A DNA stretch of 64,000 nt, taken from contig JBAZUR010000001.1 in the NCBI GenBank assembly GCA_041661305.1, positions 234,101-298,100 of the forward strand. Reading direction: 5' to 3'. A program made the position numbers and the translations under genes. The stretch is from Minisyncoccota bacterium. Lineage in GTDB: Bacteria > Patescibacteriota > Minisyncoccia > Phycocordibacterales > VMEP01. Shown here piece by piece: positions 520-55,027 of the stretch (position 1 is its first letter; every line of letters begins with the position of its first letter). The notes beneath the pieces are model-generated. The model worked only from the letters and a program-made list of their open reading frames with translations, did not search any database and had not been told where the DNA came from.

Positions 520-1707
520 ATGCGTACTTCTTACTCAGCACTCGAAACATTCAAGACCTGCCCGCTGAAATACAAATATCAAGTTATTGAAAAACGCGGA
601 GCCCCAAAAAGAATTGAGGCAATTTTTGGAACCCTTGTTCATAGCGCCCTGAAGTTTATGTTTGAGCGCAACCCCCTATACCCCACACTAGATGAGGTTA
701 TTAATTTTTTTACAATAAAATTTAACGAAAAAGCTGATGGAGTTTTGTTTAATGATGAAAAAACCAAAGAAGCTGAAGAGAAAATGTACCTTGAAGAGGG
801 TGTGCGAATGTTGAAAAATTTCTATAAAAAAAATCAACCCTGGAATTTTAACGCACTCGAACTTGAAACGAGGTTTTCCTTGGATATAGAAGATGAAAAA
901 ACAAAACGCACCCACACGCTCGCCGGAATAATTGATCGCATCGACAAAAACGAGGAAAATGAGACGTACGAAATAATTGATTACAAAACCTCAAAAAAGA
1001 TGCCAGCGGAGTCAACGCTCGAAGAAAATTTACAGCTCAATTTGTATCATTTGGCGCTAACAAGGCGGTGGCCGTCAATAACATCTGGGAAAGTTAAGCT
1101 ATCACTCTATTTTTTGAAGCATAACGAAAAAATTTCATTAACCCCAAACCAAGCTGTAATCAAACGCGCGCAGGAAATGCTTCTTTCTACAATTCGTGAA
1201 GTAGAAGACAAAACAGAGAAAGACGATTTCCCACCTACACCAGGACCTTTGTGTAATTACTGTGGCTTCCGCCCTGTCTGTCCTATGTGGTCACACGAAT
1301 ACAAAGTCGAAAAAAATGAGCCTGACGAAAAAATGGTTTCTTCTGCAATTAGTGAATTCTTTGAACTAAAAGATAGTGAGGACAAAAATAAAGACAGACT
1401 CGGAGAGCTCAGAGAAATAATTATTGGTTATATGGATAAAGAAAAAGTAGAGCGTGTGTTTGGTGCTGACGGTTTTATCACGCGAACAAACCAAGAACGA
1501 GTCTCTTATGATTTAGAGAAGTTGCGCCCCACACTTGAAGCACATGGACATTGGCAAAAACTTCTTACGCCTGACGCAAAAAAGCTTGATGAAATTAACG
1601 CTGAACTTACCGAGGAGGAAATACTAGCCGTCAAAGAAGCACAAATTATAAAAAAGTTCGCAACCCTAAAATCAACAAAGAAAAAAGGGGCTGTTGAAGA
1701 AGAGTAA
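520..1707 (+). CDS. PD-(D/E)XK nuclease family protein (Cas4/RecB-exonuclease-like) with a C-terminal Cys cluster
   Basis: 395 aa. Motifs IIDRIDK...EIIDYKTSKK (D/E-x-K nuclease core) and C-terminal CNYCGFRPVCP, as in Cas4/AddB-type Fe-S nuclease domains. Confidence 0.65.
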   Translation: MRTSYSALETFKTCPLKYKYQVIEKRGAPKRIEAIFGTLVHSALKFMFERNPLYPTLDEVINFFTIKFNEKADGVLFNDEKTKEAEEKMYLEEGVRMLKNFYKKNQPWNFNALELETRFSLDIEDEKTKRTHTLAGIIDRIDKNEENETYEIIDYKTSKKMPAESTLEENLQLNLYHLALTRRWPSITSGKVKLSLYFLKHNEKISLTPNQAVIKRAQEMLLSTIREVEDKTEKDDFPPTPGPLCNYCGFRPVCPMWSHEYKVEKNEPDEKMVSSAISEFFELKDSEDKNKDRLGELREIIIGYMDKEKVERVFGADGFITRTNQERVSYDLEKLRPTLEAHGHWQKLLTPDAKKLDEINAELTEEEILAVKEAQIIKKFATLKSTKKKGAVEEE

Positions 1708-2154: not shown

Positions 2155-2427
2155 ATGGCAACACGAAAAGCTGGAGGTACAGCTAAAAACCTCAGAGATT
2201 CAAACGCAAAGTACTTAGGTACGAAGCTTCATGACGGCGAGACTGCAAAGTCTGGCTCTATTATTGTTCGTCAGCGCGGTACAAAAATCATGCCTGGAAA
2301 AAATGTTGGCCTCGGCAGTGATCATACTATTTTCGCCCTCAAAGACGGAAAAGTTAAATTCACATCAAAGAGAAAGGTTGGTTTCGATGGCGTAACATCT
2401 GTCAAAAAAGTTGTAAGCGTTATCTAG
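2155..2427 (+). CDS. rpmA: 50S ribosomal protein L27
   Basis: 90 aa. [16 protein letters not shown]...[34 protein letters not shown] is a canonical L27 signature. Confidence 0.9.
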
Positions 2428-4303: not shown

Positions 4304-4393
4304 AAAATACCTCCTAAAAACATTGCGCAGTGCGACGGCACGAGCATAGTAAATTTTCAGCAGAAAATTATACGCGTTTTTGGGAGGTATTTT
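4304..4393 (+). repeat. Copy A of the dispersed structured repeat family (AGCA-loop element)
   Basis: Outer 18-bp inverted repeat AAAATACCTCCTAAAAAC / GTTTTTGGGAGGTATTTT. Core CATTGCGCAGTGCGACGGCACGAGCATAG. Inner hairpin AATTTTC-AGCA-GAAAATT followed by TATACGCG. Related copies lie at 22699-22788, 22090-22220, 47631-47717, 13700-13850 and 40760-40850. Confidence 0.7.
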
Positions 4394-6855: not shown

Positions 6856-8226
6856 ATGGCACAACTAAAAGGAAGTTCTGTTCGTGTTCCCCCACAAAAT
6901 ATTGACTCCGAGAGAGCTCTTCTTGGTGCAATAATGGTTCGATCAGATGCAATCAACGAGATTGTTGATTCTATAGAACCGGAATCTTTTTACGCTGAAA
7001 AACACCGCATAATTTACAATGCAATTCGAGAACTTTTTGCCAGAAATGAACCAATCGACGTAATTACTGTTTCTTCCAGACTAAACGACAAGAATGACCT
7101 AGAACGTATTGGTGGTCGTGCATACCTTATTGAATTAATTAATACCGTCCCTTCAACGTCAAACGTTTTACACTATGCCAATCTTGTCGACAAGACGAGT
7201 ATCTTGCGCAGACTAATCGACGCCGCAGATCATATTTCTGATTTGGGCTTTACTGAATCAAAAGAACTTGATCAAGTTTTAGACGAAGCAGAGAAAAAAA
7301 TATTCGGCATCACCAATTCCCCAAAGGTTCACAAATTCGTTAATATCAAAGACACTTTGACTGAGGCGTGGGAAAGACTGGATCATCTAAATAAGTCTGG
7401 CGACGAAATTCGCGGTGTCCCAACTGGATTTCCAGACCTTGATGCAAAAACTGCTGGTTTCCAAAAGTCTGACCTAATCATTCTCGCGGCTCGCCCATCA
7501 ATGGGTAAAACTGCTTTAGCTCTCGATATCGCAAGACTCGCCTCTACTCGTCACAATATCCCGGTTGGAATTTTTTCTCTTGAAATGAGCGCACATCAAC
7601 TCACCGACCGTATGCTTGCCGCCGAATCCCGCGTTGACGCATGGAAACTACGCACCGGCAAAATTAGCGCCGATGAAGATTTTTCTCGTTTACGCGACGC
7701 AATGAGTGTTCTTTCAAAAGCCCCTATCTATATCGACGACCAAGCCGGTAACTCCATTCTTAAAATGCGTTCTGTTGCACGTAGATTAAAAAGCGAACAT
7801 GGTCTCGGCCTTATCATTGTCGACTACCTCCAACTCATGACCACCTCAAAAAATTACGATTCTATGGTCAACCAAGTGACTGAGATCTCTCGCTCCCTAA
7901 AGAGCCTCGCTCGCGAGCTAGATATTCCAGTCCTCGCACTTTCTCAGCTCTCACGTGCCGTTGAATCACGCGGCGGACGCCCTCGCCTTTCCGACCTCCG
8001 TGACTCCGGTTCTATTGAACAGGATGCTGACTTGGTTATGTTTATTCACCGCGAAGACAAGTACAAAGATGATTCCGAGCGACCAAATATTGCTGAAATT
8101 CTTATCGAAAAACATCGAAATGGTCCAACAGGTAAAATTGAATTGTATTTCGATGACAAAAAAACAACCTTCCTCCCTGTTGATAAGGGCGACTACGCAA
8201 CACTTAGTAAGGATGATGACTTTTAA
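6856..8226 (+). CDS. dnaB: Replicative DNA helicase DnaB
   Basis: 456 aa. N-terminal ERALLGAIM, Walker A ARPSMGKT, then RecA-like C-domain motifs. No intein. Confidence 0.9.
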   Translation: MAQLKGSSVRVPPQNIDSERALLGAIMVRSDAINEIVDSIEPESFYAEKHRIIYNAIRELFARNEPIDVITVSSRLNDKNDLERIGGRAYLIELINTVPSTSNVLHYANLVDKTSILRRLIDAADHISDLGFTESKELDQVLDEAEKKIFGITNSPKVHKFVNIKDTLTEAWERLDHLNKSGDEIRGVPTGFPDLDAKTAGFQKSDLIILAARPSMGKTALALDIARLASTRHNIPVGIFSLEMSAHQLTDRMLAAESRVDAWKLRTGKISADEDFSRLRDAMSVLSKAPIYIDDQAGNSILKMRSVARRLKSEHGLGLIIVDYLQLMTTSKNYDSMVNQVTEISRSLKSLARELDIPVLALSQLSRAVESRGGRPRLSDLRDSGSIEQDADLVMFIHREDKYKDDSERPNIAEILIEKHRNGPTGKIELYFDDKKTTFLPVDKGDYATLSKDDDF

Positions 8227-12414: not shown

Positions 12415-12464
12415 CAACACATACACTATAATCTTGCTATAGCAAGATTATAGTGTATGTGTTG
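12415..12464. repeat. Perfect 50-bp palindrome (23-bp arms, TATA centre)
   Basis: CAACACATACACTATAATCTTGC-TATA-GCAAGATTATAGTGTATGTGTTG has exact reverse-complement arms. Confidence 0.9.
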
Positions 12465-13699: not shown

Positions 13700-13850
13700 A
13701 CAGAGAACCGCGAGTACGCTTCGGTCACGGATAAATTTTTGCTAAAATTTTCCGCTACCCCGACTCGCGCCGTCACGCTCCGTCTTTCGATTCTCTGACG
13801 CGAGTAAAGTGATTTACTCGCTTAGGGTCGCAAAAATTGGGCTTTGCTAA
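13700..13850 (-). repeat. tRNA-Glu-proximal copy of the AGCA-loop repeat family, with an additional partial fragment at 13621-13665
   Basis: In minus orientation: CAGAGAATCGAAAGACGGAGCGTGACGGCGCGAGTCGGGGTAGCGG, then the hairpin AAAATTTT-AGCA-AAAATTT, then TATCCGTGACC...CGGTTCTCTG. The outer stem CAGAGAA/TTCTCTG resembles the tRNA-Glu T-stem. This copy is close to the one at 40760-40850. Confidence 0.6.
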
Positions 13851-13856
13851 TTTTTG

Positions 13857-13928
13857 CGACCCTACAGAGAATCGAACTCTGATTCCCGCCTTGAGAAGGC
13901 GGTGTCCTAACCGTTAGACGATAGGGCC
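13857..13928 (-). tRNA. tRNA-Glu (anticodon CUC)
   Basis: GGCCCUAUCGUCUAACGGUUAGGACACCGCCUUCUCAAGGCGGGAAUCAGAGUUCGAUUCUCUGUAGGGUCG folds as a cloverleaf with a 7-bp acceptor, D-arm, anticodon loop UUCUCAA and T-loop UUCGAUU. It resembles E. coli tRNA-Glu. CCA is not encoded. Confidence 0.8.
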
Positions 13929-19786: not shown

Positions 19787-20446
19787 CTATTTATCGAGCG
19801 TCCAATAATCACCCCTTCCAACAATTTCTAACCTAGAGCCATCTATTTTAATTGCTGTCTCATCGTCGGTGGCATACACTAAAACATTAAACCTTGTTTT
19901 CTCTATATTATTTAAAAATTCTTTTCTTACGTGTTTAAACCACTCAGAATTAAGGTGTGGTATAAAAGCAAAATCATACAATCCCATTGGAGTTCCCTCT
20001 TCGCCACCATAGTCCTCTTCTGGAAATATTTCACTATTTAAATCTTCTGACAAAAAGTGCCCAGCAACCATGCTCCCTGCGCTTATTCCCATGTACACTT
20101 TTGTATTAAGTAACGGTAAAAGAAATTCTCTTATTTTATTTTCTTTAATTATTCTCGATAGATATTTTTCATTTCCTCCACCAAAGCAAATTATGTCTGC
20201 CGCCAAAAAGTGAGGTTCCCAAACCCCTGCCGGTAAAGCAACGTCGATGATGTCAATTGATTTAAAACTATATTTCTGAAAATCTTTTAAATTTTCTATA
20301 ACCCAACCCTTATCATCTATTCCAGGGTTTGCTGCTGTTGGGACAAAAAGAATAGATACTTCTGCTAGTGGTTTACCAACAAGCTCTTCGAGAGCTTTTG
20401 CTATGTGCTCATTTTTTAACCCACTAGAGGTAAGTAATAATCTCAT
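19787..20446 (-). CDS. Peptidase E-like S51 family peptidase
   Basis: 219 aa. Class I glutamine amidotransferase-like fold signature with catalytic Ser in GISAGSMV. Confidence 0.7.
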   Translation of the reverse strand: MRLLLTSSGLKNEHIAKALEELVGKPLAEVSILFVPTAANPGIDDKGWVIENLKDFQKYSFKSIDIIDVALPAGVWEPHFLAADIICFGGGNEKYLSRIIKENKIREFLLPLLNTKVYMGISAGSMVAGHFLSEDLNSEIFPEEDYGGEEGTPMGLYDFAFIPHLNSEWFKHVRKEFLNNIEKTRFNVLVYATDDETAIKIDGSRLEIVGRGDYWTLDK

Positions 20447-20454
20447 TTATTGTT

Positions 20455-21924
20455 TTATTCTCTCGGTCGCATCGTTGGGAACAAAATAACCTCTTTAATA
20501 TTTTTCGTATTTGTCAGAATCATTACTAGTCTATCAATTCCAATTCCAACTCCAGCAGCTGGTGGCATTCCGTATTCCATTGACTCAAGGTAGCTCTCGT
20601 CCGATGGAGAAACTTCCCCTTCTCCAGCACGCTTCTTTTTGTCTTGTTCAACATATCTTTCACGCTGGTCACTTGGATCGTTGAGCTCAGAAAAAGCATT
20701 AACAACTTCAAATCCTCCGACAACAAGTTGGAATCTATCAATAAAATTCTGATTGTCTTCTTTTCGTTTTGCGAAAGGAGAAAATTCTACAGGATAATCA
20801 ACAATGAATGTTGGTTGAATTAGTTTTGGTCGACAGGTTTTTTTATAAATATTGTCGATAATTTTTTCTTTTGCGTCCGAAGGAGCAACATCAATACCAA
20901 GTTGTTTTGCTTTTAAGGATAATTCATCTTTTGTTGCCACTATCAAATCAGGGATAAGGGCGTGTCGCTTTAGCAAATCAGAATAAGAAATAACACTGAA
21001 TGGTTTTCCGAAATCAATTATTTCTTCCCCGTGTTCTACTTGCCCTTTCTTCACAACTTTCTTTGCAACGCGTCTTACAAGCGCTTCAACAAACTTCATC
21101 GCCTTCTTGGCATCACTATATGCCTCATAAAATTCAAGCATCGTAAACTCGGGGTTATGAGTGACATCAATCCCCTCGTTTCTAAAATTACGCCCAAGTT
21201 CAAAAACTTTTCTGAACCCTCCAACCAAAAGTTGTTTCAAATATAGTTCTGGCGCGATACGCAAAAACAAATCAATATCTAGCGCATTGTGGTGAGTTGA
21301 AAAAGGCTCGGCGGTTGCTCCGCCTGCAAGTGGTTGGAGAAGTGGTGTTTCTACCTCAAGAAATCCATTCTCATTAAGCGCTAGACGAATTTCACTTATA
21401 ACCGTTGAGCGAACAATAAAACGATCACGAATTTCTGGTGCCATTAATGTGTCGAGATAACGACGACGGAATCTTTCCTCAACATCCTGTAATCCATGCC
21501 ACTTGTCAGGAAGCGGACGTAAACTCTTTGAAAGCATTCTCCAGTTGGTGACAAGAATTGTTTTTTCTTTTCGTTTCGTTACAAATAAATTTCCAGATAC
21601 TTCGACAAAATCTCCTATATCAACAGTATCTCTAAAAAGCTCAAAGACTGCGTCTTCTATTTCTCCCTTTTTAAGAAGCCCCTGAAACACTCCTGTGCCG
21701 TCGTTTAAATCAAAAAATATTAGCGCACCCTGTCCCCGCACAGACATAATACGCCCAACCAAAGACAATGGTTTCTTGCGCTTGGATAATTTAGAAAATT
21801 GAGTAACCGCCTCAAGAAGTGTGGCATCTACGTTTGAAACGATTGGGTAAGGCAAAACGCCCATCTCCTTCAAGACCGCGAGCTTTTTTAACCTTTCGTT
21901 TCGAATCTCTTCAAGTGAAGCCAT
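20455..21924 (-). CDS. lysS: Lysyl-tRNA synthetase (class II)
   Basis: 489 aa. OB-fold anticodon-binding N-domain, class II motifs 1-3 (FRNEG, GGxxxGxGIDR). Confidence 0.9.
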   Translation of the reverse strand: MASLEEIRNERLKKLAVLKEMGVLPYPIVSNVDATLLEAVTQFSKLSKRKKPLSLVGRIMSVRGQGALIFFDLNDGTGVFQGLLKKGEIEDAVFELFRDTVDIGDFVEVSGNLFVTKRKEKTILVTNWRMLSKSLRPLPDKWHGLQDVEERFRRRYLDTLMAPEIRDRFIVRSTVISEIRLALNENGFLEVETPLLQPLAGGATAEPFSTHHNALDIDLFLRIAPELYLKQLLVGGFRKVFELGRNFRNEGIDVTHNPEFTMLEFYEAYSDAKKAMKFVEALVRRVAKKVVKKGQVEHGEEIIDFGKPFSVISYSDLLKRHALIPDLIVATKDELSLKAKQLGIDVAPSDAKEKIIDNIYKKTCRPKLIQPTFIVDYPVEFSPFAKRKEDNQNFIDRFQLVVGGFEVVNAFSELNDPSDQRERYVEQDKKKRAGEGEVSPSDESYLESMEYGMPPAAGVGIGIDRLVMILTNTKNIKEVILFPTMRPRE

Positions 21925-22089
21925 AATTGGCCAATTATACCGTTTTTAATAAAAAAACGAAAATCATAATGATTTTTTTATAATTATTTATTATTAAGCT
22001 TTTGCATTAAAAAACACACATGTCCGCCCCTGCTGTAAAAGTCGCGCGTCAATGGACGGTCGTGCGACATGATTTCGCCTAAATCATAT

Positions 22090-22220
22090 TCTCGTGCCAC
22101 GCATAATTTCTTGCTAGAAATTAGCTCGGCCCCGACTCGCCTCGTCAGGCTCCGTCTCTCAATTGCTTCACATATCGCAATTGAGCGTCGCACTGCGCAA
22201 TGTTTTTTGAGGGGTATTTT
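22090..22220 (-). repeat. Copy C of the AGCA-loop repeat family (a longer variant)
   Basis: In minus orientation: AAAATACCCCTCAAAAAACATTGCGCAGTGCGACG, then an inserted hairpin CTCAATTGC..GCAATTGAG, then GACGGAGCCTGACGAGGCGAGTCGGGGCCGAGC, then the hairpin TAATTTCT-AGCA-AGAAATTA, then TATGCGTGGCACGAG. Confidence 0.6.
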
Positions 22221-22294
22221 GGTGATATTGAATTCAAAAATACAACTCGCTTGGATTTTAGGAAAACACAGATGAGCCTGCTACAATTTAATAT

Positions 22295-22633
22295 ATGTCA
22301 GAAAAATTCAACCCACAACCAAATGAAAATGAGGTGAAAAATCCCTCAGAAAGGATAGCTGATTTGTCTATACTATTTAGCGAAGCCGAGTCTATTCTCT
22401 CTTCCGAGGGACGAGAGAGCGCAAAGTTATTAACACCTAAAATTTACAATGAATTAATCTCTTTAAACAAAAGGGATAAAGGAGAATATTTAACTTTATG
22501 GGTTTGGAACCCAGATGGAGATTTGAGTGAGGAGGAATTTAACGCCTTAAATCTTAAAAGAAAGTTACTGTCCAACGCCATTGGTATTATGACCGCATCT
22601 GGTGAAGTTAGGCACGACTTAAACGAGATTTAA
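22295..22633 (+). CDS. Hypothetical protein (112 aa)
   Basis: ORF with typical AT-rich codon usage. No recognisable domain. Confidence 0.45.
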   Translation: MSEKFNPQPNENEVKNPSERIADLSILFSEAESILSSEGRESAKLLTPKIYNELISLNKRDKGEYLTLWVWNPDGDLSEEEFNALNLKRKLLSNAIGIMTASGEVRHDLNEI

Positions 22634-22698
22634 ATACAAGTAACACTTTCAGTGGTATCTCGAAAAAAACCAAAGTCTATTGTATTCCTGATACCCCA

Positions 22699-22788
22699 GA
22701 GATACTATAGAAAGACATTGCGCAGTGCGACGGCACGAGCATAGCAAAAACTTAGCAAAGTTTTATGTGTGTCTTTCGATAGTATCTC
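22699..22788 (+). repeat. Copy B of the AGCA-loop repeat family
   Basis: Outer stem GAGATACTATAGAAAGACA / TGTGTCTTTCGATAGTATCTC. Core CATTGCGCAGTGCGACGGCACGAGCATAG identical to copy A. Inner hairpin AAAACTT-AGCA-AAGTTTT, which is compensatory relative to copy A. It is flanked by the direct repeats GTATCTCGAAAAAAA at 22663-22677 and 22779-22793. Confidence 0.7.
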
Positions 22789-22798
22789 GAAAAAAATC

Positions 22799-23257
22799 TT
22801 ATTCTATATCTACGATTTCGTATTGAGTGACTCCTCCTGGAGTTTTGAACTTAACAACTTCTCCTTTTTTCTTACCAAAAAGCGCTATTCCGAGAGGAGA
22901 CATATTTGAAATCTTACCAACAGACATATCTGCTTCCTCAGAACCAACAACCTCAAATTTTTGAGTTACAGAACTTCCTGATTTTTTAACGTGAACAGTT
23001 GAACCAACTTCCACCATATTGCTGTGGTGTTTTTCAATAACAACAGCTGACTTTAGTATTTCCTCAATCTGAGCTATGCGCTCTTCTGTTTTGGCCTGAT
23101 CTTCGCGGGCTTGAAGGTATTCTGCATTTTCCGAAAGGTCTCCAAGAGACTTTGCATATTCAAGTTGTTCCGCAATTTCTTTGCGTTTTGTCCCTTTCAA
23201 GAACAAGACCTCAGCCGATAATTCCTCAATTTTTTGTTTACTTAATTGATATTCCAT
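22799..23257 (-). CDS. greA: Transcription elongation factor GreA
   Basis: 152 aa. N-terminal coiled coil and a C-terminal FKBP-like domain (SPLGIALFGKKKGEVV). Confidence 0.9.
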   Translation of the reverse strand: MEYQLSKQKIEELSAEVLFLKGTKRKEIAEQLEYAKSLGDLSENAEYLQAREDQAKTEERIAQIEEILKSAVVIEKHHSNMVEVGSTVHVKKSGSSVTQKFEVVGSEEADMSVGKISNMSPLGIALFGKKKGEVVKFKTPGGVTQYEIVDIE

Positions 23258-25377: not shown

Positions 25378-26169
25378 TCAATTGATTAGTACCTCAACAA
25401 GTTTTAATTCCTGCATATTAAACGGGGTCTTCAGCAAGATAACCTGAAAAGGGCTTCGTGGATCATTCACAACTGCACCAACCGTAGCAATCAAAAATGG
25501 GTTGAGTCCTAAAGAAACAACTTGTGCATCAACAGGAACATTAACATCCCTCGGAAGAGTAGCTTCAAAATTGCCGTTTCCTAAACCACGTAAAGAGACG
25601 CTTATATTGCCTTCAGATATTAGCCCTGCAGTTATCTTTCCTGGTGAAGAAAACATTTCAACTTTGGAAGTGGCGTCACCAACATTAAAAACTTCGCCAA
25701 CAACCGTACCTCCATATGTCAAAACCTGAGCTCCATTAACTATTCCACTATCAACCCCAACATCAAGGACCATGGTGTCATACGGAGAACGATTTGGTTT
25801 TGCAATTATTGCAGCGAGTACTGATCTTTTTTCAGATTTTCTCCCAAGAATATCCTTGAGTTCTGTGTTTTCCTGTGCCAATCTATCTCGCTCAAGAGAA
25901 AGAAGAGCAAAGCCAACATGTTCTGCTTTTAGGCGTGTATTTTCTTGAGAAAGTGAATTCTTAAACTGTATTGCTGACCAAAAACCAGAAAAGAAACTAG
26001 CAACACCGTCCTTTCCTTCAGAAACCAAAGCCAAAGAATTTTGAGTGCTATTTCCAAGCTGTGCAACAAACCCTTTCGCATAAACACCAGACACCACAAT
26101 GAGAGTGAGGGCAATCACAGGAACAAATACTTTAAAATAATTTTTCTTTTTATCTCGGTGGTAAATCAT
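25378..26169 (-). CDS. mreC: Rod shape-determining protein MreC
   Basis: N-terminal TM, coiled coil, and a C-terminal beta domain. Start placed at the internal ATG to avoid a long overlap with mreB. Confidence 0.8.
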   Translation of the reverse strand: MIYHRDKKKNYFKVFVPVIALTLIVVSGVYAKGFVAQLGNSTQNSLALVSEGKDGVASFFSGFWSAIQFKNSLSQENTRLKAEHVGFALLSLERDRLAQENTELKDILGRKSEKRSVLAAIIAKPNRSPYDTMVLDVGVDSGIVNGAQVLTYGGTVVGEVFNVGDATSKVEMFSSPGKITAGLISEGNISVSLRGLGNGNFEATLPRDVNVPVDAQVVSLGLNPFLIATVGAVVNDPRSPFQVILLKTPFNMQELKLVEVLIN

Positions 26170-27205
26170 CTTGTTTTTCAATAAGAATATCCTGATGGAA
26201 AACAAGGTCTTCCAAAATAATTCCAGTTCCTCTCGCTACAGCCGAAAGAGGATCGTCAGAAATATAAACTGGAATCTTCAAAACGCTATTGAGGTATGGG
26301 GCAAGTCCTTGAATAAGAGCTCCTCCTCCAACCAAGACGATACCACGATTCATAATATCGGATGTAACTTCGGGTGGTGTTCGTTCAAGCACCTCTTTAA
26401 CTGAATCCATCAAATTACCAATGGATGCGGAAATCGCTTCTCTAATGTCAGCGTCGGTGACTATAACTTCGCGAGGTAATCCTGTTATCAAGTCTCGTCC
26501 TTTTATTGATGACTCAATTGTCTCTCCTGTATCGAAAACAGAACCAATTGCAATCTTTACGCCTTCAGCTGTTTTCTCCCCTATCAATATTTTAAACTCA
26601 TCACGCAAATACGAAATAATATCTTCATTCAATCTATCTCCGGCAATTTTCAGATTTTTCGAAGCAACAATACCACCAAGAGAAATGACGGCAATGTCTG
26701 TTGTTCCACCACCAATATCAATAATCATTGAACCAACAGGATCTTTAACAGGAAGACGAATTCCAATCGCTGCAGCCATTGGTTCCTCAACAATGTGCAC
26801 TTCGCGAGCGCCAGCGTTCCTGGTTGCATCATAAACCGCGCGAATCTCCACGTTGGTAATACCGGAAGGCACACCCACAACAACGCGAGGGCGAATTGGT
26901 TTTTTTGCAATACGGTCAGCTTTGTTGATTAGATAAGCAATCATCTCCTCTGTCACTTCAAAGTCAGATATAACTCCATCAACCAATGGACGAATGGCCT
27001 TGATATGCCCTGGCGTACGTCCCAACATTTGCTTTGCTTCCATACCGACAGCAACAACTTGTCCCGTTTTTTGATTAACAGCGACAACAGACGGTTCGTT
27101 GATAACAATGCCGTGCCCTTTCAGATAAACAAGCGTATTTGCAGTACCAAGATCAATACCGATATCGTTTGAGAAAACTGAGTAAATTTTGTCGAATGGT
27201 TTCAT
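26150..27205 (-). CDS. mreB: Rod shape-determining protein MreB
   Basis: 351 aa actin-like ATPase (IGIDLGTANTLVY, DIGGGTTD). Confidence 0.9.
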   Translation of the reverse strand: MKPFDKIYSVFSNDIGIDLGTANTLVYLKGHGIVINEPSVVAVNQKTGQVVAVGMEAKQMLGRTPGHIKAIRPLVDGVISDFEVTEEMIAYLINKADRIAKKPIRPRVVVGVPSGITNVEIRAVYDATRNAGAREVHIVEEPMAAAIGIRLPVKDPVGSMIIDIGGGTTDIAVISLGGIVASKNLKIAGDRLNEDIISYLRDEFKILIGEKTAEGVKIAIGSVFDTGETIESSIKGRDLITGLPREVIVTDADIREAISASIGNLMDSVKEVLERTPPEVTSDIMNRGIVLVGGGALIQGLAPYLNSVLKIPVYISDDPLSAVARGTGIILEDLVFHQDILIEKQDDLPPR

Positions 27206-31512: not shown

Positions 31513-32526
31513 CTATCGCTTCGCGATTATCGACTTTTTGTAAACATCGAGGTGCTCAAGTGCGATTCCAGTCCCCTTCGCCACACAATACAATGGGTCC
31601 TCGGCCATAGTCGCCTTAACTCCAGTGCGACGAAAAACAAGTTCTGGAAAATTACGAAGCATAGAGGTTCCTCCGGTCATGATTATTCCATTATCTATAA
31701 TATCCGCCGAGAGCTCTGGTGGAGTATCCTGAAGAACGTCTTTAATCGCTTTTATCATCTGTCTTAGTTCTTTATCTATCGCCTTAACGATTTCATTTGT
31801 TGAAATTTGTGCAGTACGTGGAAGTCCTGCGATGAAATCGCGACCTTTGATGGTCATCGTCAATTCTTCGTCCATTGGCGTTGCCGAACCAATCTGAATT
31901 TTTATATCTTCTGCTGTCTTGTCTCCGATAGCCAAGTTAAAAGTTTTTTTAATGTAATCCGTAATTGCAGCATCAATACGATTGCCTGCGCACTTCACAG
32001 AGTTTGATGCAACAATCCCACCGAGCGAAATAACAGCAACGTCTGTCGTACCACCACCAATATCAACAACCATATGCCCTCGAGGTTCATGAATTGGAAT
32101 ACCTGCGCCGATTGCCGCCAAAATTGGTTCCTTCACAACATAGGCGTTTTTTGCCCCAGCTTTAATTGCAGCCTCCACGACAGCACGACGTTCTGTTGAC
32201 GTTACCCCCGCAGGAACAGAAACCATCACCTCTGGTTTAAAAATACTAAACTTCCCCATCGCCTTACCAATATAATAACGAAGCATCGCTTCGGTCACGC
32301 GATAATCAGCAATCACACCATCTCTCATTGGTCGATAAGCAATAATGCTATCTGGAGTTTTACCAATCATATCTTTTGCTTCAATACCAACAGCCAAAAT
32401 TTTGTTTTCTTGTTCAGAAACAGCAACAACTGAAGGTTCGTTTAAAACAACTCCCTTTCCAGGAAGGTACACGAGGGTATTTGCTGTCCCTAAATCTATT
32501 CCAAGTTTTTTTGTAAAAAATGACAT
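31513..32526 (-). CDS. MreB-like actin homolog (second copy)
   Basis: 337 aa. LGIDLGTANTLVY, DIGGGTTD. Stand-alone, not next to mreCD. Confidence 0.85.
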   Translation of the reverse strand: MSFFTKKLGIDLGTANTLVYLPGKGVVLNEPSVVAVSEQENKILAVGIEAKDMIGKTPDSIIAYRPMRDGVIADYRVTEAMLRYYIGKAMGKFSIFKPEVMVSVPAGVTSTERRAVVEAAIKAGAKNAYVVKEPILAAIGAGIPIHEPRGHMVVDIGGGTTDVAVISLGGIVASNSVKCAGNRIDAAITDYIKKTFNLAIGDKTAEDIKIQIGSATPMDEELTMTIKGRDFIAGLPRTAQISTNEIVKAIDKELRQMIKAIKDVLQDTPPELSADIIDNGIIMTGGTSMLRNFPELVFRRTGVKATMAEDPLYCVAKGTGIALEHLDVYKKSIIAKR

Positions 32527-40603: not shown

Positions 40604-40675
40604 TTCCGGAGTAGCTCAGCGGTAGAGCGGTCGCCTGTTAAGCGATTGGTCACAGGTTCGAATCCTGTCTCCGGA
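40604..40675 (+). tRNA. tRNA-Asn (anticodon GUU)
   Basis: UCCGGAGUAGCUCAGCGGUAGAGCGGUCGCCUGUUAAGCGAUUGGUCACAGGUUCGAAUCCUGUCUCCGGAG has a 7-bp acceptor, D-arm GCUC/GAGC, anticodon loop CUGUUAA and T-loop UUCGAAU. CCA is not encoded. Confidence 0.85.
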
Positions 40676-40687
40676 GTTGCCAAAAGT

Positions 40688-40759: not shown

Positions 40760-40850
40760 CAGGATTCGAAAGCCGGAGCGCGACGGCGCGAGGCGGGGTC
40801 GCAGAATTTTTCAGCAGAAAAATATCTGTGACCGGACTGTCTCCGGAGCA
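40760..40850 (+). repeat. tRNA-Asn-proximal copy of the AGCA-loop repeat family
   Basis: GGATTCGAAAGCCGGAGCGCGACGGCGCGAGGCGGGGTCGCAG, then the hairpin AATTTTTC-AGCA-GAAAAAT, then ATCTGTGACCGGACTGTCTCCGGAG. The outer stem CCGGAG/CTCCGG reuses the tRNA-Asn acceptor sequence and ends with an exact 12-nt copy of the tRNA 3' end. Confidence 0.6.
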
Positions 40851-47574: not shown

Positions 47575-47630
47575 TTGCTTAAAAATAAAACAAAATTCGT
47601 ATATTTAACAATAGTTTGTTTATTTTTTTA

Positions 47631-47717
47631 TTTTTCCCTTAAAAAACGCGCATATCCGCCTGCTGGCGGATTGCTATGCTCGTATCGCCATACTGCGCAA
47701 TGTTTTTTAAGGGAAAA
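47631..47717 (-). repeat. Copy D of the AGCA-loop repeat family
   Basis: In minus orientation: TTTTCCCTTAAAAAACATTGCGCAGTATGGCGATACGAGCATAG, then the hairpin ATCCGCC-AGCA-GGCGGAT (GC-rich stem, same AGCA loop), then ATGCGCG, then the outer stem partner TTTTTTAAGGGAAA. Confidence 0.7.
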
Positions 47718-47792
47718 ATCTAGAGTTTTTAAGAAAAAAATTATACGTGTTTTAAAAAAGCAAAAATAAAAAATTGTTGATATAATTCACCT

Positions 47793-54332: not shown

Positions 54333-54575
54333 GTGAGTGCTGACTTCAACGCAAATGCCATACTGAAAGGCAACGAAGACTTCGTCGCTTTTCTCCATGA
54401 ACGTGCAAGGTGGGAAAACATCCCCGCAACCTGCGACAAGAAGTGGCTTGCAGGTTTTTGGCAAAATAACAGGGGTTTGCTTTCACACCTCTTCGTTATG
54501 GAAACCGGCAAGGTGCTCTTCGTTCCAAACGATACTGCTTTCTTCCAGCAAGCCGCCGAAGCCTATCAAGGCTAG
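54333..54575 (+). CDS. Hypothetical protein (80 aa), paralog 1 of a tandem pair
   Basis: AGGAGG Shine-Dalgarno 6 nt upstream of a GTG start. KGNEDFVAFLHERARWENIPATCDKKWLAGFWQNN...QQAAEAYQG. Followed by terminator CCCCGCATCACGCGGGG plus T-run at 54594-54622. Confidence 0.5.
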   Translation: MSADFNANAILKGNEDFVAFLHERARWENIPATCDKKWLAGFWQNNRGLLSHLFVMETGKVLFVPNDTAFFQQAAEAYQG

Positions 54576-54699
54576 CTCTCTTCCGTCCCAACCAAAAACC
54601 CCGCATCACGCGGGGCTTTTTAACATATTAACGTTTTCGAAAAACATGATAGTATCAACGCAGTTGCAACTTTAACTCAACCAATCACCGGAGGGCGAA

Positions 54700-54942
54700 A
54701 TGAACACCAGTGAAATCAAAAAGGACGCAATTAAGGGCAATGAAGAATTTGTTGCGTTCTTGCACCAACACGCGAAACAGGCGAAAATTCCCAGCAGTTG
54801 CGACAAGGCATGGCTGGCGAGTGTATGGCAACGAAACAAGGTTGTTTTCATGTTTCATTTCGCTGTACAAAAAGGGGAATCAGGCTCAACCCCGCCCACT
54901 GATGAATTTCTCAGGCAGGCCGCCGAAGCCTATCAAGGCTAG
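54700..54942 (+). CDS. Hypothetical protein (80 aa), paralog 2 of a tandem pair
   Basis: GGAGGG Shine-Dalgarno upstream of the ATG. KGNEEFVAFLHQHAKQAKIPSSCDKAWLASVWQRN...RQAAEAYQG. Followed by the near-identical terminator CCCCGCATCGCGCGGGG at 54960-54988. Confidence 0.5.
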   Translation: MNTSEIKKDAIKGNEEFVAFLHQHAKQAKIPSSCDKAWLASVWQRNKVVFMFHFAVQKGESGSTPPTDEFLRQAAEAYQG

Positions 54943-55027
54943 TTCTCTTCCGTCCCAACCAAAAACCCCGCATCGCGCGGGGCTTTTTAATTTTCTAAAA
55001 GCTATCTGCCTAAAAACTAAAAGCTTC

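Follow-up and report, generated by a model that had tools for sequence, protein, structure and literature searches.

A 15-base direct repeat beside a structured palindromic element in a patescibacterial genome is probably a duplicated element end and not a target-site duplication

A short palindromic element, referred to here as copy B, lies between ORF112 and greA in a contig of a Minisyncoccota bacterium and is bracketed by two exact copies of a 15-base word. The reading that best fits the data, to which a probability of roughly 0.6 is given, is that B belongs to a family that behaves as selfish palindromic DNA and resembles the Rickettsia palindromic elements (RPEs), and that the 15-mer consists of the terminus of the element plus a decayed second copy of that terminus, instead of a duplicated target. 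The window analysed is a stretch of 64,000 nucleotides (assembly GCA_041661305.1, contig JBAZUR010000001.1, positions 234,101 to 298,100), and all coordinates given without a locus name are counted from its first letter. According to the homologs of GreA, the window falls in Patescibacteria/Paceibacterota.

The 15-mer, GTATCTCGAAAAAAA, has two exact occurrences on the + strand of the window, at 22655-22669 and 22782-22796, which are 127 bases apart from start to start and leave 112 bases in between. A preliminary description of this DNA had reported a 15-bp direct repeat around B; the exact pair is real, but the coordinates assigned to it (22663-22677 and 22779-22793) were wrong by 8 and 3 bases. 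No exact match appeared in 100 dinucleotide-preserving shuffles, so that none is expected by chance, while with up to two mismatches allowed at least two matches are obtained in 16 of the 100 shuffles, which renders that test uninformative. The similarity exceeds the 15-mer and extends over 35 bases with 80% identity (repeat family D19), from a left copy, X2, at 22646-22680 on the + strand (CTTTCAGTGGTATCTCGAAAAAAACCAAAGTCTAT, including the exact 15-mer 22655-22669) to a right copy, X1, at 22773-22807 on the same strand (CTTTCGATAGTATCTCGAAAAAAATCTTATTCTAT, including 22782-22796). The chance recurrence of a low-complexity stretch, made of an A-run and a short word, could be suspected from the fact that a G and the seven A's after it make up eight of the 15 bases and that A-runs are found after many copies of the family. 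Nevertheless, with no exact match expected in shuffles and with a similarity that reaches 35 bases in register, the probability left for a chance repeat is negligible.

Both repeat copies are contained, together with B, in a block of 165 bases that extends from the stop codon of ORF112 to the stop codon of greA (22634-22798, +). The two genes converge on B, with ORF112 at 22295-22633 (+) and greA at 22799-23257 (-). ORF112 is a small conserved hypothetical gene with no Pfam domain, whose product is a member of a small conserved family of 52 clusters; an exact look-up of the window ORF112 matched no record. The hairpin of B occupies 22699-22788, and its minimum-free-energy fold has a z of -7.2. 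In its 19-bp outer stem, P1, the 5' arm (X', 22699-22717, +, GAGATACTATAGAAAGACA) pairs with the 3' arm (22770-22788, +, TGTCTTTCGATAGTATCTC), and the conserved core of 70 bases (22709-22778, +) is matched by the covariance model of the family with 83.2 bits (E = 1.2e-23).

The right 15-mer is composed of GTATCTC, the final seven bases of the stem, followed by a G and by a run of seven A's. The overlap between the right direct repeat and the outer stem, which had been noticed previously, is therefore confirmed and amounts to the last seven bases of the 3' arm. As a whole, X1 runs from the end of this arm through the A-tract into the stop codon and final codons of greA, here in reverse complement. 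The left 15-mer is separated from the hairpin by 29 bases (22670-22698, +, CCAAAGTCTATTGTATTCCTGATACCCCA), a spacer or 'leader' that contains a TTGTATT motif. The same motif is seen some 15-20 bases ahead of many copies of the family, the sequence upstream of the hairpin shows conservation within subfamilies, and a leader stretch, TGTATTGTGTTT, is common to the loci L081 and L007. Besides pairing with the 3' arm, X' is complementary to the left repeat at 12 of 16 bases, and the 35-base similarity runs in register into the outer stem of B. The order of the parts is X2, spacer, X', core, and X1.

The unit of the family to which B is assigned consists of a three-way-junction core of 70 bases within a hairpin of about 90 bases, with an outer stem of 18-19 bp. 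The core comprises the inner 8 bp of P1, P2a, an internal loop with GSA opposite GA, P2b capped by a GRCG tetraloop, and P3, which carries an AGCA loop and a bulged A. The covariance model (R1) was built on 62 distinct copies, over which 98.3% of the cells are paired and 20 of the 25 pairs show double-sided changes, with far lower values in shuffled and slid controls. The outer stems vary between subfamilies and covary. The median hairpin length over the 62 copies is 92 bases (interquartile range 90-94), so the hairpin of B has the standard size of the family, which argues that GTATCTC belongs to the element.

Six core copies are recognized by this model in the window, three of type 1 and three of type 2. 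The type-1 copies other than B are A (hairpin 4304-4393, core 4314-4383, +, 91.6 bits), which sits between a peptidase S41 gene (-) and corA (+), and F (hairpin 47630-47719, core 47640-47709, -, 89 bits). Type 2 is represented by C (13700-13800, core 13721-13790, -, 31.8 bits), downstream of tRNA-Glu, by E (40760-40850, core 40765-40836, +, 32.1 bits), downstream of tRNA-Asn, and by the core D-inner (22099-22156, -), nested in the composite copy D (22010-22230, -) upstream of lysS. The outer part of D is a type-1-like element, into whose P2b loop this type-2 core and further hairpins are inserted; in other alleles, the D locus holds a simple 90-base copy (L003 and L004), another variant (L092) or none (L094). 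A perfect palindrome at 12417-12462, between two small ORFs, scores 17.7 bits against the element model on both strands and is probably a hairpin unrelated to the family. Two further repeats were recorded in the window. One is a 76-base direct repeat with 96% identity (54548-54623 and 54915-54990), which spans the 3' ends of two adjacent small ORFs along with their terminator-like hairpins (CCCCGCATCACGCGGGG and then T's), and the other is a 145-base repeat at 70% (26649-26793 and 31994-32138) that corresponds to mreB paralogs (26150-27205 and 31513-32526).

Searches against Rfam 15 returned two tRNAs only over the window, only tRNAs over 17 copy-bearing loci, and no relevant match in 21900-22900 with E up to 10. 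A known RNA family was ruled out because nothing was obtained either at the gathering score or with E up to 10, and a self-cleaving ribozyme or riboswitch, suggested by the fold, was rejected on account of the lack of an Rfam match, the mixed orientation, the copies in coding sequences and the rarity of G-U pairs. In a tally of the covariation table, G-U pairs account for about 20 of 1545 cells, a frequency similar to that of mismatches, which is more readily reconciled with DNA strands paired by Watson-Crick rules than with selection on an RNA. The same data bear on a switch in which X2 and X1 would compete for X' in the RNA, the alternative folds regulating ORF112 or greA. Such a switch could draw on the strong covariation of the core and on the two possible pairing partners of GAGATAC (22699-22705), namely the GTATCTC at 22655 and that at 22782, but it is made very unlikely by the scarcity of G-U pairs, the occurrence of copies in either orientation relative to genes and within coding sequences, and the absence of promoter-like and terminator-like sites from 21900-22900. 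The hairpin of B itself does not resemble an intrinsic terminator, as the A-run follows the hairpin on the + strand and the T-run precedes it on the greA strand. Moreover, the upstream copy is unique to B, and in L007, where the element is antisense between greA and lysS, X2 has been lost with no compensating change.

The uniqueness of the upstream copy was observed on searching the 250 bases upstream of 62 type-1 copies, using as query the last 10 bases of the 3' arm and the next 8. Hairpin ends were defined by stepwise stem extension, since minimum-free-energy ends are unreliable owing to long-range pairs. B reaches 16 of 18 positions and the next best copy 13 of 18, and the distribution equals that of the controls; among the 62 type-1 copies, only B has an upstream copy of its own terminus. 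Direct repeats of at least 7 bases abutting the hairpin were found in 8 of 67 copies, against 0.9 expected, and seven of these eight belong to one subfamily. This subfamily, seen in L014, L015, L050, L067, L041, L063, and L011, carries GAGCGAG, GAGTGAG or GAATGAG, in matched variants, on both sides of hairpins of 90-92 bases. These flanks of 7-9 bases are either site-specific target duplications of 7-8 bp or part of the element. They are the sole signal in the family that looks like a target-site duplication (TSD), and their geometry is unlike that of B. The preliminary description had regarded a lack of flanking direct repeats in other copies as evidence against its own proposal, and such a lack is essentially what the family exhibits, apart from this one subfamily with abutting repeats.

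That proposal was a 15-bp TSD abutting terminal inverted repeats (TIRs), as in a classical miniature inverted-repeat transposable element (MITE). An element of about 112 bases with TIRs would have been pasted into GTATCTCGAAAAAAA, and the fill-in of a staggered cut would have generated the two copies. An exact 15-mer does bracket B, and the subfamily with abutting 7-9-base repeats indicates that target duplication may exist in the family. However, the right GTATCTC is base-paired within a stem whose length is the usual one in the family, and the repeat extends in register into the stem. In the subfamily with TSD-like repeats these adjoin the hairpin directly, whereas in B a gap of 29 bases separates the hairpin from the left copy. 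The geometry of B is also absent from the other type-1 copies of the 62-copy comparison. In addition, 15 bp is unusually long for a target duplication of the DDE type.

The alleles of the B locus point in the same direction. The state seen in the window, with two 15-mers, is found in L002, L003, L004, L006, L009, and L216-L218, all with an identical GreA protein. L095, whose GreA is 99% identical, is window-like and shows a single 15-mer because its contig ends inside B. L007 (93% nucleotide identity in greA) contains B and lacks both ORF112 and the left copy, while L001 (96% nucleotide identity in greA) lacks ORF112 and the hairpin; all that it retains here is the leader and 9 bases from the start of the 5' arm, with GAGATA running directly into CTACTC at the junction. 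In the outgroups L092/L093, L094 and L219, with 78-80% nucleotide identity in greA or ORF112, there is no element, and the stop codons of ORF112 and greA are separated by 9, 3, and 3 bases, respectively. X2 is missing from L007, L001, L092-L094, and L219, and the 15-mer was not found outside window-type alleles when L001, L007, L092/L093, L094, and L219 were compared. Compared with the outgroups, the window carries an inserted block of about 160 bases, to which both repeat copies belong.

An orthologous empty site with one copy of the 15-mer, as proposed in the preliminary description, has no counterpart in these alleles: L092/L093, L094 and L219 have spacers of 3-9 bases, and L001 is a partial deletion. 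A hairpin-less spacer with a single 15-mer, ...CACTTTCAGTGGTATCTCGAAAAAAATCTTATTC..., was not found among the alleles compared, nor was a closely related allele with the same spacer and without B, the outgroups being only 78-80% identical. With three outgroup alleles that have short spacers and no 15-mer, with B present in L007 in the absence of the left copy, with a right copy internal to the stem and with a left copy 29 bases off, the classical TSD is unlikely.

L007 and L001 are most simply read, from their sequences, as deletion derivatives. A first deletion, between AAAAAAACGAAAAT and AAAAAAACCAAAGT, would have removed ORF112 and D from both, and in L001 a second one would have eliminated the hairpin between two CTA triplets. 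The reverse order, with insertion of the ORF112 block, is conceivable and less favoured, because ORF112 sits at the locus in all outgroups and is thus ancestral there. With regard to the segment itself, ORF112 and composite D (21925-22675) are bracketed by these imperfect repeats of 13-14 bases, AAAAAAACGAAAAT near lysS and AAAAAAACCAAAGT next to B; its complete absence in L001 and L007 has the appearance of a deletion mediated by the repeats. A separate gene-sized indel between close lineages affects the peptidase S51 gene downstream of lysS (19787-20446, -), which is missing from L001.

In the preferred reading, which takes the 15-mer as a duplicated element end, the right copy would be the element's own 3' terminus, formed by the outer end of the stem and the A-tract, and the left copy would be a decayed second copy of the same terminus, 80% identical over 35 bases. 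The block would then represent one unit of 127 bases (leader, hairpin, and A-tract) plus about 35 bases of terminal redundancy, or about 1.28 unit lengths. Two routes to this redundancy can be envisaged. On the one hand, more than one unit length may have been copied from a tandem or circular template, in which the 3' end would be joined to the leader (...GTATCTCGAAAAAAACCAAAGTCTATTG...). On the other hand, an older member of the same subfamily may already have been present, and B may have landed directly behind it; of that older copy, nothing but the 3' end would be left. The element probably moves as a folded single strand recognized by an enzyme encoded elsewhere in the genome, and the leader may be part of the element or of its preferred target. 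Understood as a one-off duplication of an element end, the 15-mer is unfit as evidence of cut-and-paste transposition.

A snap-back model, in which the 5' flank is copied inverted onto the 3' side, was dropped as the main model for type 1. The comparison of L001 with L007, in which GAGATACTA apparently pre-existed, was in its favour, but type-1 hairpins are uniform in length (90-92 bases), L001 retains a TTGTAYT leader and looks more like a partial deletion, and the outgroups lack the whole block. Snap-back remains a candidate for the type-2 copies.

These type-2 copies constitute a sister subfamily linked to tRNA and tmRNA genes. In the window, C and E are located 70-90 bases behind tRNA-Glu (13856-13928, -) and tRNA-Asn (40604-40677, +), respectively. 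The 5' flank of C, CAGAGAATCGAA, is antisense to the T-loop and T-stem of the tRNA over 12 bases, and the 3' flank carries a repeat of the 3' part of that tRNA, TTCTCTGTAG. Similarly, the 5' flank of E, CAGGATTCGAA, is antisense to the T-arm (T-loop/T-stem) over 11 bases, and the 3' part of the tRNA recurs as CTGTCTCCGGAG on the 3' side of the element. A metagenome scan yielded 124 type-2 cores, 106 of them with enough upstream sequence, and in 61 of these 106 a tRNA or tmRNA gene on the same strand ends less than 400 bases upstream, at a median distance of 62 bases. The hosts comprise 15 tRNA species and tmRNA, and examples beyond the window include L050, L011, L034, and L096-L175. The association is specific to the sequence of each host gene: among 62 non-redundant pairs, 28 repeat 12 or more bases from the 3' part of their own tRNA, exactly and in direct orientation, in the 3' flank, against none of 620 controls with other tRNAs, and the 5' flank is antisense over at least 9 bases in 40 of 62, against 33 of 620 controls.

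By eye, in printed examples, the direct copy begins at about position 56, in the T-loop, and the longest exact block starts at a median of 19 bases before the tRNA 3' end and reaches that end. The layout of type 2 is X (the tRNA 3' part), spacer, X', core, and X, where the inverted X', on the 5' side, comprises T-loop, T-stem, and acceptor. The interval between the repeats measures only about 130-170 bases and contains neither an ORF nor an integrase, and spacer modules are sometimes common to elements behind different tRNAs (e.g., L050 and L106). Among 137 tRNAs that lack a core, 30 (about 22%) are still followed downstream by an inverted copy of 9 bases or more. A tRNA-like fold of the type-2 5' flank was considered and rejected, as the acceptor strands do not pair (by eye). 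The tRNA-linked triplication, direct-inverted-direct, is unexplained by any standard scheme of transposition or integration alone.

B has the same order of parts, and its inner arm (TATCGAAAGAC in L007) is similar to the 5' flanks seen in type 2, so that B may be a type-1 core in a type-2-style setting, but X here belongs to no tRNA. The likeness of the inner arm is one of the arguments for an att-type origin, in which X/X' would be a recombination site, the element would have integrated at an identical chromosomal X, and the flanking X copies would be attL and attR. The same layout behind tRNA or tmRNA genes in 61 of 106 type-2 copies and the exact tRNA 3' copy in their 3' flank also argue for it, and they match the regenerated target and displaced fragment that mark the insertion of integrase-borne islands (PMC4383910). 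Nevertheless, the chromosomal X is absent from every element-less allele at the B locus, where X is not part of any tRNA. Moreover, type 2 measures about 150 bases and lacks an integrase, and at least 15 tRNA species each have a matching X/X', so that a fixed attP is no explanation. An att-type origin is consequently retained as a minority alternative, and a doubtful one.

A broader and likewise tentative proposal, considered improbable, is that the family represents miniature non-autonomous integrative elements of a new class, which would move as folded single strands with arms templated by the target. The three-way junction would act as the handle for a host-encoded or distant recombinase or for an HUH-type enzyme, and the outer stem, rebuilt from inverted and direct copies of the neighbouring sequence, would mimic a duplex target. 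In type 2, this target would be the upstream tRNA or tmRNA segment from the T-loop to the 3' end. Arms templated at each insertion would produce a direct-inverted-direct triplication, and not a TSD.

That the family is or was mobile is well supported, although not by the 15-mer, in which the preliminary description had seen the best sign of mobility and which provides no evidence of it. The support comes from presence and absence of copies, which differ between strains with identical GreA, from the nesting of copies in one another, from insertions in ORFs, and from multi-copy genomes. Tandem and nested arrangements are exemplified by L027, with three copies in a row, by composite D, and by L039, with an insertion. 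A scan of one genome per species gave 76 loci, nearly all in Patescibacteria and many in shared genomes. The hosts are Paceibacterota, Taylor-, Nomura-, Adler-, and Giovannonibacteria, and metagenome-assembled genomes (MAGs) labelled Saccharibacteria. One MAG contains at least 15 copies, and a second one at least 9. In 584 kb of those loci, the covariance model found 106 matches, tandem and facing pairs included, while neither core pattern was found in 2.9 million viral contigs. Orientation relative to the neighbouring genes is mixed, and the stop codon of an opposite-strand gene is often adjoined. Short-read contigs break inside copies A and E, for which the search for further filled and empty pairs gave only identical alleles or contigs broken within the element. 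No transposase, integrase or reverse transcriptase was found among 30 scanned ORFs of the window, all of which are housekeeping or without a Pfam match.

Thirteen copies are inserted in long ORFs of protein genes (L052, at 639-708 and 1410-1479, L020, L042, L012, L021, L029, L026, L053, L079, L049, L072, and L078), ten in sense and three in antisense. The sense copies are found in genes for RecG (two in one gene), KsgA, ComF, RecJ, Fmt, and TsaD and encode the peptide ..NIAQRDGASIAIRQQANMRV.., and the antisense ones lie in the genes for MnmA and two others. Orthologs of TsaD exist with the insert, with a decayed insert, and without it.

Other arrangements were observed at loci outside the window. 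In L003, holB is flanked by two extra divergent type-1 copies, at 1415-1554 (-) and 2280-2419 (+), which are missing at the corresponding window positions (31482-31513/30743-30793) and in L001, the intergenic DNA being replaced and not merely interrupted. In L039 (about 7240-7295) and L027 (about 7480-7520), a small G+C-rich palindrome, CCTGCCCGCGTGTAC...GCAGGCGGGC, lies within type-1 copies directly after CATT, which indicates that other mini-palindromes land in elements of the family.

Patescibacteria, or candidate phyla radiation, have genomes of about 1 Mb with few recognized mobile elements. A literature search found no palindromic or MITE-like repeats linked to this group, and the family appears to be undescribed so far; it is best designated an RPE-like palindromic repeat, characterized by its structured core and by a sister subfamily anchored to tRNA genes. 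It is conserved over a range that reaches from Paceibacterota to the MAGs labelled Saccharibacteria, and nearly identical strains differ in their copies. Short-read assemblies break in it, and essential enzymes gain about 30 residues from it; the family is therefore relevant to genome annotation, strain typing, and protein evolution in Patescibacteria.

When compared with islands integrated at tRNA or tmRNA genes, type 2 shares the direct repeat of the tRNA 3' segment, but its insert is only about 130-170 bases long and lacks an integrase, it has an extra inverted copy that forms a stem with the downstream copy, and the same core is found behind at least 15 tRNA species. A different parallel is offered by the attC sites of integrons and the attP site of the CTX phage, which are folded single-strand sites where structure is conserved over stem sequence and the unpaired bases are kept. 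In the family, structure is likewise conserved beyond stem sequence, as are unpaired bases, and the stem could rebuild a duplex copy of the target; this comparison is purely inferential.

Bacterial MITEs, such as the Correia elements, are also small, non-autonomous, multi-copy, hairpin-forming and strain-variable, and one subfamily described here shares with them abutting repeats of 7-9 bases. In contrast to MITEs, the family is most conserved in its interior and not at its termini, its outer stems differ between subfamilies, most copies, B included, lack a TSD, and no parent insertion sequence is known. REP, BIME, and ERIC sequences are similarly intergenic palindromic repeats found in either orientation. 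ERIC sequences accept internal insertions at fixed points, as the family does in composite D and L039. Unlike these repeats, however, the family has a larger and branched fold, and its copies are tolerated in coding sequences.

The closest likeness in behaviour is to the RPEs, which occur in intergenic regions and inside protein-coding genes, where they add a conserved peptide (PMC10969869). Both are short palindromes (about 100-150 bp) that encode no transposase and reach a high copy number in a reduced genome, and both combine intergenic copies with copies inside genes that add a peptide, 13 copies lying in ORFs in the present family. The differences concern the hosts, Patescibacteria here and Alphaproteobacteria for the RPEs, the structure, a core of 70 bases with a three-way junction and invariant loop bases against a simple hairpin, and the existence of a sister subfamily anchored to tRNA and tmRNA 3' ends. 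As the phyla differ, homology to the ten RPE families of Rickettsia is unlikely, and the family may best be said to work like the RPEs, a likeness of behaviour and not of membership.
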